Assembly (NCBI RefSeq): GCF_035594765.1
Contig: NC_085841.1
Span: 134,835,574-134,899,573 of the forward strand
Source: Anolis carolinensis
Taxonomy: Eukaryota
Direction of reading: 5' to 3'
DNA: 64,000 nt
The notes beneath the pieces were generated by a model. The model did not search any database, had not been told where the DNA came from, and saw nothing but the letters and a program-made list of their open reading frames with translations. A program made the translations under genes and the position numbers. This document shows, one piece after another, positions 4,996-47,207 of the stretch (the first letter of the stretch is position 1; the number at the start of each line of letters is the position of its first letter).

Positions 4996-6383
4996 CAAAC
5001 CTATACGTGCATTTATTTATGGCATCCATATATACTGTGCTTAATGAACATTTACTAATGGCAATTTAAAGTGCAAATTAGGTTTGCTCTTTTTTAATTC
5101 TGGCAATGGTACCCTATTTTTATTTTTCTAACACTGAGATGATCCTTTTAATTAGCGCAACATTATGTTATGTATTTGTTGTTGTTTCTTTTAATTATGA
5201 GATGATTTTCTGTGTATTGCCAATGTACAAATTAAATTCTGGAGGCATAGGCCAGCAGGAGAGCCAACATTATAGGGAATGCAAAGCAGGTGCAAAAATC
5301 CCTGGATTCTTTTTAATTAGCGTAAAAAATATGGAAAACCAAAGCGAAACTTTAGGCAGCCCCAGCAATTCTTGGAATAACTTTCCCATTACACACCTGA
5401 ATGATTTGACATCCTTTTCTGTTTTTTAGAGAGCTTCAGTCTTTAATTCTTCAGTTGTCTTTAAATTATACTTAAACTTGTTGTGAGGATAGGTTAAGTT
5501 CTGTATCATTACAGATATCCTTGTACTGATGCTGGAGAGGAGTCTACAGGGTATGAAATATTTCTTAGTCTGGCAATCAGACCTTGCGACCGGAGTCACA
5601 CACGTTTGGAAAGCTGCAGGCATGATAGTCTATTCCTCCCAGATTTCATCCCATTCCTAAAAAACAGAAAGTCCTGAAAAAAAGTTGTCTGTTTTGAATG
5701 TTAGCTCCATCCCCACCATTCAACGCCAATCTTGTGCATTGTTTACTTGCACTAGGAAGCATTGAAAATTAGGACTGTTCCACGGGGGAATAAGGCTCAG
5801 AAGGTACTATTTTGGGGGATGCTATTTTGAAAATCTCTGGCTCAAGCATCTTCTGGCTGCCTGTTTTCACTCTGGGCTTGAATGCTGAGTCTATGTTTAG
5901 CCCCCAGAACACTGATGTTTCTGAAAAACTGATGCCTCCCATCTGTATTTGAAATCCTAGTTACTGATCCCAATGACTGTGCATTTTCTGAAGAAATCTT
6001 ATAATAAAGGCTGGTGTATTGAAGAATAATTTCATATGAATGAGAAATGATGAACATTGATTTTCCGCTGGAAAGTTATTTGCTATGGAAGGAGAGAAAG
6101 AGAAAAGAAAAAGTGATGTGTGCCATGCTACTGTATCCTAAAAGGAAAATAGTCTGTTATGGCAGGCATGTAGCCCGGGGGGGGGGGGGGCTTGAGGGGC
6201 TTGAGCCCTCCCCCCCCCCAAATTCTCAGGGCAGTCCATGAGAAGGCCTTACATTTATTATTTAAACTGTTATGTCTATTCATATCATGATCTGATCACC
6301 ATGCTCAATATATCCCATATGCATGGGGGTATTGGGATAACAATACAAAAGGTTTGCTAGGGTAGATCCTCTCTCACCCAGAC

Positions 6384-7355
6384 TGTGATGACCCATGGGC
6401 CTTGTAGTCCTGCTCAGGACATTGTAATCCCTGATGAAGAAGAAAACTTGGGTTTTTTACCTTCCCAGTCAGAACTGGAATCTTCTCAGCCAGATCTTTC
6501 CCAGGCAGATCTGGGAACCTTGCACCTGCAAGAAAGTTGTGTCCCAGAAGTATGTCAAACAAACCCAGAGCCCACATCTCCCGTGTTCTTGCGCCGTGAG
6601 TTTTGTAAACAACAGAGGGGTTTGGAAGCAGCTTCGCGCAGGAGTGCTAGAATTGCAGCTAAGAATGTAGCCAATTAAGACTGCTTTCCGTGAGAATCTT
6701 TAGGGAGTCAAACATCTGGTCCCAGAGTTTAGCTTTCGTTTCTGGTTCCCAGAGAACTGCTTCGGCGGGAAAGTTAGACTCTATATAGGTGTTTTACCCG
6801 CGTAGTAACTTCGCGGAGTCAATTCGTCAGCCTCCGGAGCGAGTTGTGTCTGGACAGCGCGCTCCGTTTCAAGCCTCGTTCCTGCTCAAGCCTTGCCCTG
6901 CTTTCCAGCCTTCGCTCCAGTTTCCAGCCTTTGTTTACCTACGGACCTTGCTTGTTTCCCGGGACTATACCTTGCCTTGTATCACGGATTTTACCACGTT
7001 ATTCCACGGACCTTGTTCTTGTTCCTTGTTACCTTGTTCCACGTTTTAAGCCTTGCTTCAAGTATCAAGTTATTTCCTAGCCTTGCTCAAGTTTATGGAC
7101 TAAAGGACCTTGTCATCTCCCCTCACTTTGCCTGGCAAAGTGAGTGTTTCGGTTATTGGATTACAACTTTGGATCATAATATTTCATATTGGACATTGCT
7201 TTTTTGGACTAATTTTGACCTTTCCTGAAAGGTCTGCTTCTGAACTAACTTTTACATTTATTTTTATTAATCTTATATATTTCCTTAATAAAGATATTAG
7301 ATTGAATCTGGCCTCTGCGTATGGTTATTGGTGCTCTGTAGCCTGGGTCCTGACA
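6384..7355 (+). repeat. 5' LTR (972 bp)
   Basis: Starts TG after the TSD and ends CCTGACA. TATATA at 6782-6787, AATAAA at 7287-7292. Its last 87 bp recur at 11318-11404. Confidence 0.93.
6385..6678 (+). other. 97-codon open frame in LTR U3: acidic/Pro-Ser-rich peptide ending RRSARIAAK
   Basis: ORF track; open from the second base of the LTR. Translation and function are inferred only. Confidence 0.45.
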
Positions 7356-7357
7356 GT

Positions 7358-7367
7358 TTGACTCTGC
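7358..7367 (+). promoter_or_regulatory. Candidate self-priming primer-binding site
   Basis: No TGG tRNA-type PBS after the LTR. TTGACTCTGC pairs with GCGGAGTCAA at 6813-6822 (one G-U), 31 nt downstream of the TATA box. Confidence 0.7.
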
Positions 7368-7397
7368 CACCCTAAGCACCAATTAACCTCGGCCAGA

Positions 7398-8390
7398 ATG
7401 TCTACCGGAACCGTACCTGGGCCGAGCGGCCAGCCGATTACCTACACCATCGACAAGGATGAGGTGGATCGAATCCGTGATAAGCTCAATGCCCAGGATG
7501 GAGAAATAAAAGGTTTGAAGGAACGCGGAATCCGTCTACCGGCCATGGCGTTGCCAACCAAGTTTACTGGAGAAGCTTCTAAGGTTCATGTTTTCCGTCG
7601 CCAATGCCAAGCTTATCTAGAGGCCCGTGCTGCCGAATTTCCCCAAGAAGACATCAAGGTGGCATGGGTTTACAGTCTTCTAGACGGGCCAGCGGCCAAC
7701 TGGGCGACGGCACTGTTCGACCAAGCCTCTCCACACCTAAGATCCGCGCAACGCTTCTTGGACCACCTTAAAGAGACTTGGGGAATCGAGGACAATTTGG
7801 AGGCAGCCGGTCACAAACTCCGTCGCCTCTTCCAAGGAGACAGACCTATGTCTCAGTACATAGCCGAGTTCCGAGTGCTGGCCCATAACACCGGCTGGAA
7901 TGATGTAGCCCTCAGGGGACAATTCCGGGAGGGTCTCAACATCGAAATGCTGGAGGAAATCTCCAAGGTGGATCCTCCCCAGACCCTCGAAGCACTCATT
8001 GATCAATGTTTACGGGCTGAAGTCATGATTGCCAACAGGAAACAGTGGGTTCGAGGCCAGAGCGGTAGAGCTGGGGCAAAACCCCCCGCTCCCGCCAGCG
8101 TTCAGCCACGTCCAGTGTGGAGACCCCCACCACCAACCCCATACCCCAGAGGAAGCGAGGAGGTGCCGATGCAGTTGGGCAACGTGCGTCCCAGATTAGA
8201 TGCCGCCGAGAAGGCCCGTCGTCAACGCTTAAACCTCTGTTGGTACTGCGGGAACGGGGGCCACTTCGCCAGAGAGTGCCCAGCCAAAGGGAAGCCCGCC
8301 GCCCGTCTTGCGGCGGCGTCCTCCACGGAGACGAAGGCGTCTGAGCCGGCTGGCACACAGCCGGCGGGGGAAGCCAACGACCGGGCGTAG
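7398..8390 (+). CDS. gag: Gag (retrotransposon capsid plus CCHC zinc knuckle), PEG10/RTL-like sushi type
   Basis: 330-aa intact ORF with LPTKFTG, LLDGPAANWA, QGDRPMSQYIAEF, GWND..L..QFREGL and CWYCGNGGHFAREC. Confidence 0.95.
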   Translation: MSTGTVPGPSGQPITYTIDKDEVDRIRDKLNAQDGEIKGLKERGIRLPAMALPTKFTGEASKVHVFRRQCQAYLEARAAEFPQEDIKVAWVYSLLDGPAANWATALFDQASPHLRSAQRFLDHLKETWGIEDNLEAAGHKLRRLFQGDRPMSQYIAEFRVLAHNTGWNDVALRGQFREGLNIEMLEEISKVDPPQTLEALIDQCLRAEVMIANRKQWVRGQSGRAGAKPPAPASVQPRPVWRPPPPTPYPRGSEEVPMQLGNVRPRLDAAEKARRQRLNLCWYCGNGGHFARECPAKGKPAARLAAASSTETKASEPAGTQPAGEANDRA

Positions 8391-11300
8391 AGAGGCTCGC
8401 CAACCCGGTCAAAAAACCCGTTCAAGAGCCGCCAACCGGAGTCCTGTTCCTTCTCGTGGTCACCTTATGGTCAGCAATGATAGACGCCATGATAGACTCC
8501 GGAGCCACCAACAATTTCATTGATAGAGAGTATGCCGACTCTCTGGGATTACAATATCATGATTTCAAGAATGCCCGTGTGGTGCAAGCCATAGACGGCC
8601 GCCCCCTCAAGACGGGCCCCGTAAGTCAGTGGTCGGAACCCACCAGGATGTGGATAAGGGAACATATGGAAGAGATTTCTTTCTTTGTTACCGAGGTTCC
8701 CCATTTCCCTGTGATTTTGGGAATTCCATGGCTGACTCTCCACGACCCAAGCATCTCCTGGTCCAACAGAGAACTGCAGTTTGCTTCACAGTACTGCCAA
8801 AACCATTGCCTTGTAGCCAAGGTCTGCCATGCCACAGACACCGAGCCCATCATCACCCTGCCCAAGAAGTACTCCGAGTATTGGGATGTATTCAATGAAA
8901 AAGAAGCCGAGAAATTACCCCCACATAGACCTTATGACTGTGCCATTGACCTGGTGGAGGGGGCCCCGATCCCGCGAGGGCACCTATACTCCCTGACTGA
9001 ACCAGAGCAAGAAGCTCTCAGGGAATTCATAGAGACAAACCTTCGCAAGGGATTCATCAGACCCTCTCAATCCCCAGCCGCCTCCCCAGTGATGTTTGTG
9101 AAGAAGAAGTCAGGGGAACTACGCTTGGTGGTGGACTACAGAGCATTGAACAATATCACCAAGCGGAACAGCTATCCCCTGCCCTTAATCTCGGATCTAC
9201 TGGATCGGCTTCGAGGAGCCAAGGTTTACACCAAGCTGGATCTTCGGGGGGCTTACAACTTAGTTCGCATCAGAGAAGGGGACGAGTGGAAGACCGCCTT
9301 CCAGACCAAATTCGGATTATTCGAGTCCCGAGTTATGAATTATGGATTATGCGGAGCTCCCGCAACGTTCCAGCATTTTGTCAATGACATTTTTCAGGAC
9401 TATCTAGATAGGTTCTTGATAATCTACCTGGACGATTTTTTGGTGTTTTCTAGATCACAATCAGAACATGAGAACCACGTCAAAATGGTGTTACAACGAT
9501 TGCGGGATCATGGACTTTATGCCAAGTTGGAAAAATGCGCTTTTGATCTACAAGAGGTAGATTTCCTTGGTTACCGTATCTCGCCTCTAGGGCTCTCCAT
9601 GGATCCAGCCAAGGTTTCAGCAGTATTGGAATGGCGGGCGCCAACTAACAAGAAAGAGGTGCAGCGTTTCTTGGGGTTCGCGAACTATTACCGCAAGTTC
9701 ATTCCAGATTTTGCCCGCTGGTCTGACCCAATCACTAGCTGCATCCGTGGAAAACAGCCCTTCCGCTGGACTGATCAAGCAGAGAAAGGGTTCCAGCAAC
9801 TAAAGAAATTATTCACGTCCCAGCCAATTCTACAGCACCCAGATCCTGGAACCCCTTTTGTTGTGCAAGCGGACGCCTCTGATGTGGCAATTGGGGCTGT
9901 ACTCTTACAACCGGTGGGAGACCACCTTCATCCCTGTGCCTTTTACTCCCGTCAACTAACCACACCAGAGAGAAATTACACCATTTGGGAAAAGGAACTA
10001 CTGGCCATAAAGGCAGCCTTTGAAACTTGGAGACATTGGCTAGAAGGGGCCAAATTTCCCATTGAAGTCCACACTGATCATCGAAATCTAGAACATCTAA
10101 GAACTGCCCGCAAACTAAATCAGAGGCAGCAACATTGGGCTTTGTTCTTTGAACGTTTCAACTTCCAGATTCATTATGTGACCCCAGCCCAAACCAAGCA
10201 AGCAGACGCCCTGTCACGTAAACCGGAATACGCTGCAGGACGCAAGGAGACCTTTGAATCCCAATTACTACAACCCGAGAACTTTGCCACGCTCACAGTG
10301 GGGAACACCAAATCCACTCCCATTGGTTCAACTTCCTCTACTCCAGGACCCATCTGTGCTCAAGAAATCAGGGCTAGTCAGCAAGCAGATGCCTGGGCGC
10401 AGGACCAACTTCGTCAAGGTCTGCATTTTCCCTTTTCGCTTAAAGATGGACTGCTATGCTATAGAAATCATGTTTATATCCCACCCGGACCGGGCAGGGA
10501 AAAAGCGCTTCGTCTGTGTCATGACTGCAAACCAGCAGGGCATTTCGGACTATTTAAAACCATGCATCTGATCCTAAGGGATTTTTGGTGGCCCAAGATC
10601 CGCAAAGATGTGGAAAAATATGTCAACACCTGCCCAGTATGCCAGCGCTCCAAGATAAGAAGGGAGAAGCCCTCAGGGCTTCTGCATCCCCTTCCTACCC
10701 CATCTCGGCCATGGGAAATAATTTCTGCGGATTTCATCACTGACCTACCACCTTCCTGTGGATTCACCACGATCCTAGTGGTGGTGGACCTTTTCACCAA
10801 GTTAGCCCATTTCATTCCCTGTGAAGGTCTTCCCACGGCCAAAGAGACTGCAGATCTATTCCTTCTACATGTTTTCAGACTACATGGATTGCCCAAGAGT
10901 TTAGTCACAGACCGTGGATCTCAATTCACCTCTCGTTTTTGGAAGGCACTACAAAAACTATTGGGCATAGACTCTCGCTTATCTTCAGCTCATCATCCCC
11001 AAACAGATGGGCAAACGGAGCGCACCAATGCCACTTTGGAGCAGTATCTTCGCTGTTATGTAAACTACCAACAGGACAATTGGGCTTCTCTGTTACCACT
11101 GTCAGAGTTTGCCTATAACAATGGAGTTCAAGCTTCTACAAAAGAAACGCTGTTCTTTGCAAACTACGGCTTCCATCCACGTTTCTTTCCCCCTGTCATT
11201 GAAACTTCAGAAGTTCCCGCAGCAGAGGATTGGCTGCAGGAACTCACAGCGGTACAACAACTTTTGCTCCAGCAACTAGACCAAGCCAAGGAGGACTATA

Positions 11301-11464
11301 AACGTCACGCTGACAAAAATCTTATATATTTCCTTAATAAAGATATTAGATTGAATCTGGCCTCTGCGTATGGTTATTGGTGCTCTGTAGCCTGGGTCCT
11401 GACACAGACTCAGCCCCCCCCCCCCCCGAATCAAAATCCTGCCTACCCTACTGTGTTATGGTGA
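8345..11464 (+). CDS. pol: Pol polyprotein (protease, RT, RNase H, integrase), C-terminally truncated and reading through the LTR remnant
   Basis: DSGA protease, YLDD RT, ADAS and EKELLA RNase H, HHCC zinc finger, D,D(35)E integrase (ADFI, TDRG, QTER). The frame is open from 8345 and overlaps gag in the -1 frame. Integrase homology ends at DYKRHADK (~11317). Confidence 0.93.
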   Translation, partial: AGWHTAGGGSQRPGVERLANPVKKPVQEPPTGVLFLLVVTLWSAMIDAMIDSGATNNFIDREYADSLGLQYHDFKNARVVQAIDGRPLKTGPVSQWSEPTRMWIREHMEEISFFVTEVPHFPVILGIPWLTLHDPSISWSNRELQFASQYCQNHCLVAKVCHATDTEPIITLPKKYSEYWDVFNEKEAEKLPPHRPYDCAIDLVEGAPIPRGHLYSLTEPEQEALREFIETNLRKGFIRPSQSPAASPVMFVKKKSGELRLVVDYRALNNITKRNSYPLPLISDLLDRLRGAKVYTKLDLRGAYNLVRIREGDEWKTAFQTKFGLFESRVMNYGLCGAPATFQHFVNDIFQDYLDRFLIIYLDDFLVFSRSQSEHENHVKMVLQRLRDHGLYAKLEKCAFDLQEVDFLGYRISPLGLSMDPAKVSAVLEWRAPTNKKEVQRFLGFANYYRKFIPDFARWSDPITSCIRGKQPFRWTDQAEKGFQQLKKLFTSQPILQHPDPGTPFVVQADASDVAIGAVLLQPVGDHLHPCAFYSRQLTTPERNYTIWEKELLAIKAAFETWRHWLEGAKFPIEVHTDHRNLEHLRTARKLNQRQQHWALFFERFNFQIHYVTPAQTKQADALSRKPEYAAGRKETFESQLLQPENFATLTVGNTKSTPIGSTSSTPGPICAQEIRASQQADAWAQDQLRQGLHFPFSLKDGLLCYRNHVYIPPGPGREKALRLCHDCKPAGHFGLFKTMHLILRDFWWPKIRKDVEKYVNTCPVCQRSKIRREKPSGLLHPLPTPSRPWEIISADFITDLPPSCGFTTILVVVDLFTKLAHFIPCEGLPTAKETADLFLLHVFRLHGLPKSLVTDRGSQFTSRFWKALQKLLGIDSRLSSAHHPQTDGQTERTNATLEQYLRCYVNYQQDNWASLLPLSEFAYNNGVQASTKETLFFANYGFHPRFFPPVIETSEVPAAEDWLQELTAVQQLLLQQLDQAKEDYKRHADKNLIYFLNKDIRLNLASAYGYWCSVAWVLTQTQPPPPPNQNPAYPTVLW
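8366..8430 (+). promoter_or_regulatory. Candidate -1 ribosomal frameshift signal
   Basis: G_GGG_GAA (8366-8372), 6-nt spacer, stem GACCGGG (8379-8385)/CCCGGTC (8404-8410). Loop GGCTC can pair with GAGCC (8426-8430). Confidence 0.6.
11318..11404 (+). repeat. Remnant of 3' LTR (last 87 bp only)
   Basis: Identical by eye to 7269-7355 and followed directly by the TSD. Confidence 0.93.
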
Positions 11465-42263: not shown

Positions 42264-43825
42264 ACTCTTTTCTTACACTCTCACGATAATCCTAATTTTT
42301 AACACAGTGTGGGGGAGAAGGGGGAAATCATGTTGGTGGAGGCACTGTGAAGCTAAAAAAGGTGGAGAGTGTTGTCATACAGCCAGTGTGGGGAAAGTGG
42401 TGTAAACTGCATTGTGTGGTGTAGATGCAGCCAGGGAATAAATGTTCCCTTATTCTGACTCACCATGGATGGATTGGGGCAGAGAAATACCATGACATGG
42501 GGAAGGAGGAAGAGGGAGTTCACTGCCAGACAGGGGAAATTTAAAAGGAAAAGGAAGGTCAAGAGAAAGAAAGATGCGGTTTGAGATTTAGTTTTAAATT
42601 TATTTCATGAATGAAGAAAAAAAGAATTTAAAATGAAGAAGAAATAGTAGAGGGTCCCACACAATGCCAAAGTGATTTTGTTTTTGCAGAACAAATAACT
42701 TAATATTAATTAGGCTGGACCCTGCAATATCATGTTTACAATTAAGCAAATCAAAATAATTGTTTCAAGAGTGCCACAACTGTGGTTAATGCCATCGTCT
42801 GTATGATATTGAGTCCACCCAAGTAGTCCCTAGAAGTTAGGAAGTGAAAATACTACAGCAGATAGCAAACAAAGCATATCATAAGTAGAAAATTCTCAAT
42901 CGGTTAGTTAAAAATTGGAATAACTTGGAATGAAAATTGGAATGAATAAAAAATGTGTGTTGTTAAAGAACAAAACCCAGATCTATATTCAAGAGAAAAC
43001 TGGATTATAAAGACTTTTGAAATGACAGACATTGACAAATTATTTAGTATGATAAAGGGAAACTCTGTGGTGAACTTCTTAAAAGGCCGCAAACCGTTCT
43101 TGTTTTTATTTAAAAAATAAAAATATTGAAATGCTTTTGTGTCTTGCAATGAAATATAAGAATAATGTAGTTAAGAAGTAAAAATGAAGAGTAGTAAAAA
43201 TCATATAACAACAGGAAGATGACTAGCTGATTCTAGAGAAATGTCTTGGGAGATGTTAAGTGGGACATCAGGTTTCAACTTTTTTCTTTTAAATGAGGAA
43301 AAGGTGTGTTCATTTTTTCTTCATTTCTAAATAAGAAATACAGTGTAGGTGGCATAGGTTGTCTAAATAGTGCAAGTCTAATTTCTGTATAAAGTGTACT
43401 GTTTTACTTATATTATCTATTCTATAACAATCTAGCTAGCTTGTTATGTAATACAGAACAAAACCCAAGCTTATAAAGAGTCTGAGTTTGCTAAAAAGAG
43501 AAATCAGTTTACTGCACTTATATGAAAAATGAGCACTCAATGAACCATGCTGGGTTAGACCAAAGTTCATTTTCCTGGTCTACTGTTCAGTGCTTATGGG
43601 AATTTTACAAAGAGGATATGAGTGAAATGCCACATACACCACTTGTCTTCAACAACAGCTGGTATAGAGCAGGGTACTACCCTGAGACTGGGTGATAAAT
43701 ATATATAGTTGTCATGACATGTAGCCAATGAAGTGTATATACTCCTTTTTTCAGAATTGTGTTTTTGACGCTGTTGTATTTGTCTTAATCTGAGTGATAT
43801 GACTGTTCTCTTTTTTTGTTAACAG

Positions 43826-44898
43826 ATCAGCTGTACTCATGGTCTCCTACTCAGCAGCACTTCGATGAAGAAGGCTACTCTCCTGTTTCAAGGAACATGA
43901 AAGGATTATCTGGCAGTCGCAATCAATCACAGCTATGTTCTGCTCATACTTGTGGTTTAGCATCCCCTGAAGATTGTGAACACACCCACGATCATATTCA
44001 TCATGGCCAGGAGTCAAGGCAATCATATCTTCTCAGTCCAACGGAGAGCTGCCCGATGGACCACCATCGCTGCTCGCCGCGAAGCTCCATCCATTCAGAA
44101 TGCATGATGATGCCCATGGTTATGGGCGATCATATGTCCAGTAGCACCTTCCCCAGAATGCACTACACCTCTCATTACGATACTCGGGACGATTGCACCA
44201 TGTCTCATGCTAACCCTAAGGTCAACCGGATTCCTGCAAACCTGTTGGATCAGTTTGAGAAACAGCTTCCTCTCCACAGAGATGGTTTTCATACTTTACA
44301 GTACCAGAGGACTTCAACAGCTGCTGAGCAACGCAGTGAAAGCCCAGGAAGAATACGTCACCTTGTTCATTCAGTCCAAAAACTTTTCACAAAATCTCAT
44401 TCTTTGGAAGGCTCTTCCAAGAGCAATGTCAACGGGACAAAGGGAGATGGCCGAGGGGATGACCATCATCATGGACATCATTCTAAACATGGCAAAAGAA
44501 GTAAAAGCAAAGAGCGGAAACCTGAGACGAAGCATAAAACCGGAATGAGCAGTTGGTGGAGCTCGGATGATAATTTGGACAGCGATAGCACCTACCGAAC
44601 ACCAAGTGTTGTCAACAGGCATCACGTGGATCATATTTCTCATTGCTACCCTGAAGCTCTTCAGGGACACTTTGGGGACCTCTCATTAAAGACTTCAAAG
44701 AGTAACAATGATGTGAAATGTTCAGCTTGTGAAGGGCTTGCCATGGCCCCTGATGGCAAATATATGAAAAGGAGCTCTTGGTCTACGCTTACAGTAAGCC
44801 AGGCTAAAGAAGCTTATCGCAAGTCATCCCTTAACCTAGATAAGCCTCTAGTTCATCAGGAAATCAAACCTTCCCTGAGGCCATGCCATTACCTTCAG
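43826..44898 (+). CDS. DLGAP2: DLGAP2 (SAPAP2) large coding exon, 1073 nt; internal ATG at 43897 (MKGLSGSR)
   Basis: ORF 43816-44919 contains STFPRMHY, NRIPANLLDQFEKQLP, SESPGRIRHLVHSVQKLFTKSHSLE, WWSSDDNLDSD and RPCHYLQ. Acceptor ttttttgttaacAG, donor CAG|GTAACA. DLGAP2 is preferred over paralogues on CGLASPEDCEH and CSPRSSIHSEC. Confidence 0.97.
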
Positions 44899-47207
44899 GT
44901 AACAGCTCAATGTAGTTAATAATGTTATGAATACTAACTGTTCTAAAAATTTGCTGGAGGGCTTTCTCTGTGCACTCATTACCAATTTTTTGAACAACTC
45001 TTAGTTTTGGACTATTCATCTATACCTGGAAATAAAACATAAGAGGAAAAGAGGGAACTGTACTTATTAATAAGCGGTTCCATAACAGACATTTACTAAA
45101 ATTATAAAGGGTAACCAAGTTGGTCATATAAATTAGGATTACAATAAATCAACTTCACAGAAGTTCAAAGAAAGATTTGCTGTCAGATTTCTTTGAGGTT
45201 AACTTCTGACATCTTCAGCTACTACTTTTCTTAATCTTTTGAACCATCTACAACTCTTACCCAGCACCAGCATAGATCAACCAAAGGGGAGCCCCCCACT
45301 GCTGACCAAAGGAGTGAATACTGTAGAGCACTGTATTCTGTCTAAGTAGAAGATGAATGCTTTGTGGAATAGATCCTCCATTATTTATTACTTCAAAGGA
45401 ATGTGTTGTGTTTGAAGAAGGTATTCAATCAGAAAGGGCAAAAACAAAATGTTGGCCATGGCTTCCAACTGATTCGGGGGTGGGCACCTTCCGCTAGAAG
45501 AGGCCTACTTTTCAGGGCAGTTCCAGAACTGCATCCACTAGGGAAGAGGTGGGTTTTTGTAGGTTGTTGAATTCTCTGGCTGAAGCTCCTAATACCGTTC
45601 CCTAAAATGTTAATCCCAGGATTACACAGGAAGTTGCCATAACAGTTAATTGTGTAGTGTGAAAGGGCCCTGGGGCAACTCAATTTTCTTTCTGGTCATT
45701 GGTTAAATTTGTAGGTCTGCTGGAACATTTTTGTCTATGTTAAGTATATGTTTCAGCCTCACTGCATTAAATTAATTATGCAACTCCTTTAATGATTAAT
45801 TAATCTGTCACAAGCTTTGGGTAACTGTCCTGTTTTAGCAGGGGGGGGGGGAATTTAACTGAGGAGAGGGCAGAGATTTCAAATCATCCCTGAGGATTGC
45901 TTCAGTATTTTCTTCTATTAAAAAGTTTTGCTTGGGAAATAGTGAGTAGCAATACCCTTTGCTATACCTGCTTTAAAGAAGCTATTTTGAGCTGCTAATT
46001 GCATTTAGTGTATTTTTAAAAAATTAGACCTGTTGATTTCCCACTCCATATGGAGTCTCATCTTAAAGAATGGCCGGACATGGGTATGGGCTGTTAGTGC
46101 TCCTCGTGTTTCAAGATTCATCACTTGAGTGCCATCATCTATCACTGTGTTCAAACTACATACATTAACCGCTCTGCCTGAGCCATTGGGTCAATATTTG
46201 GCAATAACGTTTTCCCAAGCTAGAGGGAAAATGTGTAAGCATTGACTAAAAAAATACGATGGTATATAAGGTTGCTCAGTGAATGAGGTCCCAAAATCCC
46301 AAGGTAGTAGGCATAGGCACAGCTTTGCTGATCAGATTACTCTTGTGAAATATTTGGTAGCAGATCCTGGCTGAGAATGATTCATTGAATTAAGATCATA
46401 CATTTCAAGTTAAAGTAGATTTATAAAGAAAAACCAAAGTCATTTCATTAGTAAAATGGAATGCAGTTAATTCACTATATTCAATACTCCTAATGGAACC
46501 ATGCCAACTTTACATTTAGAAAGTGACTGCTAAATTGTTAAACCTCCTCTGTAAAATATATCCAAGGTGTTGACCACTATTCTTATAATATGTCTAAGGA
46601 GATAATGGGAAAATATCAATCTAGAAAATAAAAAGTTGGGTAATCAGCCACCCAACAGCCAATGCTCATCTTTATAAACCAGCATATATATCTGTGTGCC
46701 TGTGTATATACACACACATGTCTAAACCATACAATATGACAAAATATAAAACAACATATCATAACACAATTTAACAATACAATAAATAATAACATACATT
46801 ACAATCCAAAATTCAGAAAAAGCAATAAAAACCAGGGCAGGCCACATGAACACTAAATTAAAACTTGGTGAGAGAGACATATGAATAAAACCACGGGGAG
46901 CAGGGACATAAAATAGTGGAACAGTCTAGAGGATAGATATCCCAAGGGAAAAGCAAGCGGGAGCTGATCTTGGTTCCTCCTCCCCTATTCATCATCATCA
47001 TTGAATTTTTTTGATTTTCCTTTATTTTCCTGGTTCTTTTTATTTAGCAGGACTGGTTGGGAATTGGGGACTTGAGGGACGGTGGGTGGGTGCGTGGGTG
47101 TGTTTAGGGACTTGGAGAGTCATTCTTTTAGCTTCTTTTTCTCCTTCTCCTTCCCTTCCTCCCCTTCAGAAAATACTTCTAATAGATAATAATTATTATT
47201 AATAATA

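Follow-up and report, generated by a model that had tools for sequence, protein, structure and literature searches.

Few LTR retrotransposons have a known contact between integrase and chromatin, and for the CR motif of plant elements the partner is still open (PMC3059260, PMC11302176). The extension of pol into the 3′ LTR has been described for CRM group A and for some Reina elements (PMC3059260, PMC3605345), and in plant CRM group A elements pol ends in the basic CR motif, whose tether is poorly conserved (PMC3059260, PMC11302176). Cryo-EM has placed the RRSAR sequence of HMGN2 on the nucleosome acidic patch through R23 and R26 and the RRSSR sequence of Dsup through R363 and R367 (PMC12487698), and nucleosome binding by yeast Dot5, which carries RRSARIAT, needs R6, R7, and R10 as well as the acidic patch (PMC13347269). 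An arginine anchor of PFV Gag on the acidic patch steers retroviral integration (10.1101/2025.01.10.632130; PMC9040877); the available text of the 2022 review of acidic-patch tethers (PMC9040877) makes no mention of retrotransposons. A literature search that covered few subscription journals and no supplements found no paper reporting a retrotransposon integrase with an HMGN-like motif or an acidic-patch motif.

The window, a 64,000-nucleotide stretch of Anolis carolinensis DNA, carries an Anolis chromovirus of the Tf1/sushi type (Ty3/gypsy), in a copy with a large deletion. As an element this is an ordinary Tf1/sushi chromovirus. Piskurek, Nishihara and Okada (2009, in Gene) reportedly described a chromodomain Ty3/gypsy element of Anolis and may have described the long pol. 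The copy has the following features.

6379 to 6383, plus strand: left target-site duplication (5 bp), CAGAC
6384 to 7355, plus strand: 5′ LTR of 972 bp, TG...CA, starting with TGTGATGA
6385 to 6678, plus strand: U3 frame of 97 codons, the 5′-LTR duplicate of the sequence for the integrase C-terminal tail in intact 3′ LTRs
6412 to 6582, plus strand: acidic, predicted-disordered linker, approximately codons 10 to 66 (dN/dS 0.40, with in-frame length changes between subfamilies)
6637 to 6663, plus strand: RRSARIAAK motif, HMGN/Dot5-like (pS 0.75, pN 0.07), in a predicted terminal helix
6782 to 6788, plus strand: candidate TATA-like box TATATAG, 31 nt upstream of the predicted transcription start
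6813 to 6822, plus strand: 10-nt complement to the primer-binding site (PBS) of intact copies, the predicted self-priming RNA 5′ end
7287 to 7292, plus strand: candidate polyadenylation signal AATAAA
7356 to 7366, plus strand: PBS of the self-priming type, differing from intact copies at position 7365
7362 to 8390, plus strand: gag, 342 codons from stop to stop, with Retrotrans_gag and zf-CCHC
8345 to 11317, plus strand: pol with protease, RT, and RNase H plus the integrase core, ending before the SH3/GPY-F region, chromodomain, and PPT
11318 to 11404, plus strand: 3′ LTR remnant of 87 nt, after a 1,403-bp deletion
11405 to 11409, plus strand: right target-site duplication, CAGAC

The 5′ LTR differs from those of four full-length copies by 7 to 10 substitutions. 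The window copy measures 5,021 bp, compared to 6,424 bp for full-length elements, and the size of the deletion is the difference between these lengths. As an earlier note on this DNA had stated, the pol/3′ LTR junction is missing here: at 11317/11318 pol abuts the terminal 87 nt of the 3′ LTR, and its frame remains open through this remnant into flanking DNA, up to 11464. The 31-mer across the deletion junction occurs once in the genome, so the deletion is unique to this copy. The U3 frame at 6385 to 6678 is the 5′ LTR duplicate, and the window copy cannot make a pol-U3 fusion.

Some further observations concern the element and its surroundings. The gag and pol frames overlap by 46 nt (8345 to 8390) across a G-rich stretch with pol in the −1 frame, an arrangement that suggests ribosomal frameshifting. 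The element is inserted within a repeat, whose left part (6160 to 6225) has a G-run and a C-run in inverted arrangement and whose right part (11410 to 11430) has a C-run. Elsewhere in the window, at 43798 to 44919 on the plus strand, lies a His/Ser-rich open frame of 373 codons, which has no Pfam match and which we take to resemble the large exon for the N terminus of a synaptic scaffold of the DLGAP/SAPAP type; the retrotransposon may lie within an intron of, or upstream of, such a gene.

Since the LTR begins at 6384, the U3 frame opens at the second base of the LTR, and positions 6385 to 6678 translate to 97 codons plus TAA, ending in RREFCKQQRGLEAASRRSARIAAKNVAN. This agrees with the frame given in the earlier note, as do the location of the motif at 6637 to 6663 and the distance of roughly 100 bp from the stop to the TATA box (TATATAG lies ∼105 nt past the first base of the stop codon). 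The peptide had also been called acidic and of low complexity; it is acidic (net charge of −12 over residues 1 to 66 and +6 over residues 67 to 97), but its acidic part is a predicted-disordered linker rather than a simple repeat. RRSxR appears in 0.13% of shuffles of the peptide, and its presence is thus more than chance. Neither the 97-amino-acid tail nor its last 36 amino acids gave a Pfam match, hence no homology to the HMG14/17 domain of the HMGN family; no PDB sequence matched the last 36 residues at an E value of ≤10, and the ESM Atlas gave no usable match for the tail. For one tail-bearing protein (P0124), AlphaFold2 with a 20-row alignment predicted residues 405 to 489, which follow the chromodomain, to be disordered (pLDDT under 50), and residues 490 to 516 to form a terminal helix of 27 residues with the motif at its end, at modest confidence (pLDDT ∼59 to 67). 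A predicted model of the tail on a nucleosome would carry little weight, given that AlphaFold 3 mis-modelled HMGN2 on the nucleosome (PMC12487698).

Pol had been proposed to read into the 3′ LTR in intact copies, and this is what such copies show: pol is open and in frame through the PPT into GTG ATG ACC of the 3′ LTR, in the same frame as the U3 ORF. Among 30 U3 loci that were fetched, 12 had a PPT upstream (3′ LTRs) and the other 18 had host flank; in 11 of the 12, the U3 frame was open for all 500 upstream codons, and in the remaining one for 121. A DNA search with U3 gave 2,023 candidates, and the 40 that were scored were all 100% identical, many of them paired ∼5,452 bp apart. Three of four full-length elements had a single pol frame of 1,261 codons ending in RRSARIAAKNVAN, motif included, and the fourth was frameshifted; a stop-free frame of 1,253 to 1,261 codons was present in 131 of the best 150 matches (counted by eye, in a sample biased to good copies). 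Intact copies have the order PR-RT-RH-IN with a chromodomain, deleted in the window copy, at the integrase C terminus, and their translation runs from the integrase core through SH3/GPY-F, the chromodomain, a basic stretch, and the PPT codons into the U3 peptide. The basic stretch, KPRPRASGR, lies past the chromodomain and is separate from the U3 motif. Aligned to CBX1/CBX5, the chromodomain has F, W, and F at the three aromatic cage columns and is of type I, as defined by cage positions (PMC3605345, PMC6317226). The LTR pairs of full-length elements differ by 0 to 1 base, so the family is young. At one locus (G000:C1:304496103-304507531), three matches follow one another at intervals of ∼5,455 bp, in what appears to be a tandem array whose elements have LTRs in common. 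The fused protein is also present in UniRef, where Anolis carolinensis proteins 91 to 97% identical are labelled “Gypsy retrotransposon integrase-like protein 1” and the names listed make no mention of a tail. The U3 frame is almost certainly the coding sequence of an integrase tail.

Self-priming is known for the Tf1/sushi group (PMC6317226), and in 6 of 11 Anolis loci a 10-nt stretch complementary to the PBS was found ∼30 nt past a TATA-like box (1 locus lacked it and 4 could not be parsed). From the PBS complement at 6813 to 6822, the U3/R border is placed downstream of the U3 ORF, and with a predicted transcription start near 6813, the RNA would carry only the 3′ copy of U3. As the earlier note had suggested, U3 has a double nature: the pol frame enters it as coding sequence, and it is also promoter-side sequence. 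In the window's subfamily, another PBS complement is present at 6704 to 6713, just past the U3 stop codon.

Homologue and genome searches recovered several Anolis subfamilies with U3 frames of 249 to 291 nt. For estimates of selection, 17 real copies with open frames were chosen from some 150 loci and compared pairwise (NG86, no consensus). Across subfamilies, U3 in the pol frame had a dN/dS of 0.32 [0.23 to 0.45], the codon-level conservation on which the earlier note had made its reading depend; P values for such comparisons are optimistic, since the pairs have branches in common and the protein guided the alignment. Other frames of the same alignment gave 1.07, 1.22, 1.04, and 1.32, and the antisense mirror 0.50. 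By region, dN/dS was 0.16 before the chromodomain, 0.10 in the chromodomain, 0.74 [0.33 to 1.60] from the chromodomain end to the PPT, 0.40 in the acidic linker, and 0.31 in the 20 codons upstream of the motif. The nine motif codons had a pS of 0.75 and a pN of 0.07, with divergence of 0.145, 0.078, and 0.54 at the three codon positions, a third-position bias, and eight disjoint pairs gave pN/pS values of 0.34 for U3 and 0.06 for the motif. The arginine at motif position 5 is encoded by five different codons, of both the AGR and CGN types.

Indel phase agrees with these values. Counting only length classes seen at least twice, all seven classes of the distance from LTR start to motif were multiples of 3, compared to 6 of 18 for the downstream control, motif to poly(A). 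These anchor-to-anchor lengths supersede a noisy count of pairwise DNA gaps, in which 230 of 453 in U3 versus 453 of 2,465 downstream were multiples of 3. Among LTR matches, most of them retrieved by in-frame queries, 147 of 149 were in phase, and among loci fetched with chromodomain-side queries, 31 of 34 LTR rows were (from 40 loci: one lacked an anchor, six duplicated others, and a single locus held two LTRs). Across 110 distinct U3 sequences, the residues at successive motif positions are R (107), R (109), S (109), L (60) or A (48), R (109), I (109), A (109), A (109), and K (88) or R (20), a count that is partly circular since the anchor pattern allowed three mismatches; the residue preceding the motif takes six states. 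The consensus RRS[A/L]RIAA[K/R] is thus nearly invariant, with a core of R-R-S-x-R-(L/I) and three conserved arginines, and an upstream SPxF and RG are likewise conserved in the tail. We conclude that purifying selection acts on the U3 tail when it is read in the frame of pol.

The motif is identical to RRSARIAT of yeast Dot5 at seven of eight residues, and the residues that are invariant in it are the arginines used by Dot5, HMGN2, and Dsup, plus the serine. Several observations stand against reading it as an anchor. Position 4 is Leu rather than Ala in 60 of the 110 distinct U3 sequences, a position where known binders vary (Ser in Dsup), and the predicted terminal helix would also fit binding to DNA or to a partner. 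A search of 141 insertion flanks for 10-bp A/T periodicity saw none (P = 0.245, low power). The relatives described below that lack RRSxR, and the absence of a clear enrichment of RRSxR in chromovirus tails, count against it as well. In the flanks of 115 3′ LTRs, target sites show a weak preference, for G/C where the 5-bp duplication starts and stops and for A three bases beyond (51%).

Four other explanations were weighed. In chromoviruses, pol commonly runs a short way into the 3′ LTR (fish tails; Bingo elements, PMC3605345), and the U3 frame might accordingly be a neutral run-on of pol, or conserved DNA regulatory sites might mimic coding; this is contradicted by the third-position bias, the frame-specific dN/dS, and the in-phase lengths, and we consider it extremely unlikely. 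That U3 of any LTR encodes a small peptide of its own, beginning with the ATG at codon 2 (6388), which all aligned subfamilies have, is hardly more plausible: this ATG lies within the terminal att sequence of the LTR, the frame is continuous with pol, and transcription is predicted to start at 6813, downstream of the 5′ U3 copy.

The remaining two accept a real protein tail. Ty1 integrase has a C-terminal nuclear localization signal, and by this precedent the basic helix of the Anolis tail might be an element for nuclear import, nucleolar localization, or plain DNA binding, its likeness to HMGN being incidental; the prediction of a terminal helix fits this, and so does the fact that snake and amphisbaenian relatives have kept Arg richness alone. 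A localization signal or DNA-binding patch, however, needs no invariant Ser, Ile, Ala, and Ala, nor does it explain why Arg is fixed over Lys at three positions (107 to 109 of 110) while K and R are free at position 9, and KPRPRASGR already provides a basic stretch past the chromodomain, so we regard this explanation as unlikely, though not negligible. The motif might instead dock a specific host protein, or a histone fold outside the acidic patch, or act as a phospho-switch, as in the model of the plant CR domain, a TRARAR/K-bearing helix with a poorly conserved tether that was modelled against CENH3 (PMC11302176), and the conserved SPxF and RG upstream would suit such docking. The arginine spacing R,R,x,x,R fits HMGN, Dot5, and Dsup and not TRARAK, and the sampled insertions are dispersed: after 8 matches on other contigs and 3 tandem duplicates were dropped from the best 150, 139 were spread along five large contigs, unevenly on two, with 11 of the 139 in the middle fifth versus 27.8 expected (top-scoring copies, on contigs whose centromeres were not located). 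Docking of this kind seems to us improbable.

The reading we prefer is that the tail is a tether with an acidic-patch anchor, based on the match of the motif to tested binders and the precedent of PFV Gag; judged from its sequence, RRSARIAAK is probably an HMGN-like arginine anchor for the H2A-H2B acidic patch. In the mechanism we propose, the tail coded by the 3′ LTR would stay on mature integrase, and RRSARIAAK, carried on the predicted-disordered linker, would hold the integration complex to the H2A-H2B acidic patch of the nucleosome. Motif residues R1/R2 and R5 would occupy the places on the patch taken by R23/R26 of HMGN2 and R363/R367 of Dsup, and the chromodomain would add a methyl-lysine contact for a two-point reading of the nucleosome. 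Such an anchor would give general chromatin capture, as PFV Gag does, and not centromere targeting.

Relatives outside Anolis carry similar tails with differing ends. A Podarcis protein (P0009) has a chromodomain and a PPT/LTR junction, and then an acidic linker that aligns poorly and the end RRSARLKAR. Proteins of Rhineura (P0222), Vipera (P0224), and Crotalus (P0334), and a further one (P0155), have acidic tails of similar length, with linkers of net charge −13 to −24 and basic, Arg-rich ends of +2 to +9 that differ from one another and lack RRSxR; each is a single predicted protein and may be decayed. These proteins and the Anolis element fall in a squamate clade, supported at 98/97 in a 147-column tree of 36 chosen homologues, in which deep nodes were weak and the named reference elements (sushi-ichi, Amn) were not included. 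A snake-type chromodomain query against the Anolis genome found, among the 20 loci fetched, the same Anolis lineage only. A protein that groups with frog-type elements (P0268) ends in RRSARIAARV after a 14-residue LTR tail, and a search for its relatives gave itself and one partial match only, making it a singleton. Among the 201 non-Anolis chromovirus tails of 5 to 150 residues, RRSxR occurred in 7 (3 from one cluster) versus 3.3 in shuffles and is thus not a general chromovirus feature, while RRSAR[IL]xA, a pattern chosen after seeing the data, occurred in 2 versus 0.0015 in shuffles. RGRP was present in 58 of these 201 tails and a terminal SPx[FY] in 28. Fish integrases (e.g., P0016, P0031, P0044, and P0128) have RGRP past the chromodomain, a stretch that we presume to be AT-hook-like, followed by 20 to 40 LTR-coded residues, and their frequent SPx[FY] end is a second conserved LTR-coded terminal motif.

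On the evidence of these sequences, we lean slightly towards a broader view, in which a squamate lineage of LTR retrotransposons has made U3 coding for an HMGN-type anchor, giving an integrase with two nucleosome readers (chromodomain and anchor), convergent with foamy-virus Gag and with HMGN, Dsup, and Dot5. A strongly selected motif, near-identical to a tested acidic-patch binder, is found on a very abundant and young vertebrate element, and an LTR is under protein-coding selection over ∼30% of its length. If the anchor reading is true, the small list of HMGN-like motifs would extend to mobile elements, an integrase-borne acidic-patch tether would hint at the role of other basic tails coded in LTRs, the plant CR motif among them, and screening integrase tails in general for arginine anchors would be worthwhile.

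Compared to known systems, the Anolis tail shares with HMGN, Dsup, and Dot5 the RRSAR core in a predicted-disordered context, and differs in sitting on a transposon enzyme rather than an HMGN protein. The PFV Gag CBS, KSHV LANA, and HCMV IE1 offer an analogy, as short arginine-anchor peptides that tether a mobile genome to nucleosomes, but these are on Gag or episome proteins rather than on integrase and are not LTR-coded. The analogy with plant CRM drawn in the earlier note stands for layout, a pol ORF that enters the 3′ LTR and closes with a basic motif whose tether is poorly conserved, and fails for domain content, since upstream of the PPT the Anolis integrase retains a type I chromodomain of HP1-like kind, which the note did not mention; in CRM group A, the CR motif (TRARAR/K) replaces the chromodomain and the elements are centromeric, whereas the Anolis element has RRSxR, its sampled copies look dispersed, and centromere targeting is apparently absent. 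The most similar known elements are those of the Tf1/sushi V-clade (sushi-ichi, Amn-ichi/ni/san; Metaviridae), which have the same gag-pol order, GPY/F-SH3, type I chromodomain, and 5-bp target-site duplication and, as a group, the predicted self-priming PBS. While the fish members have only some 20 to 40 LTR-coded residues, often ending in SPx[FY], and RGRP before the PPT, the Anolis element adds ∼97 U3-coded residues with a conserved terminal motif.
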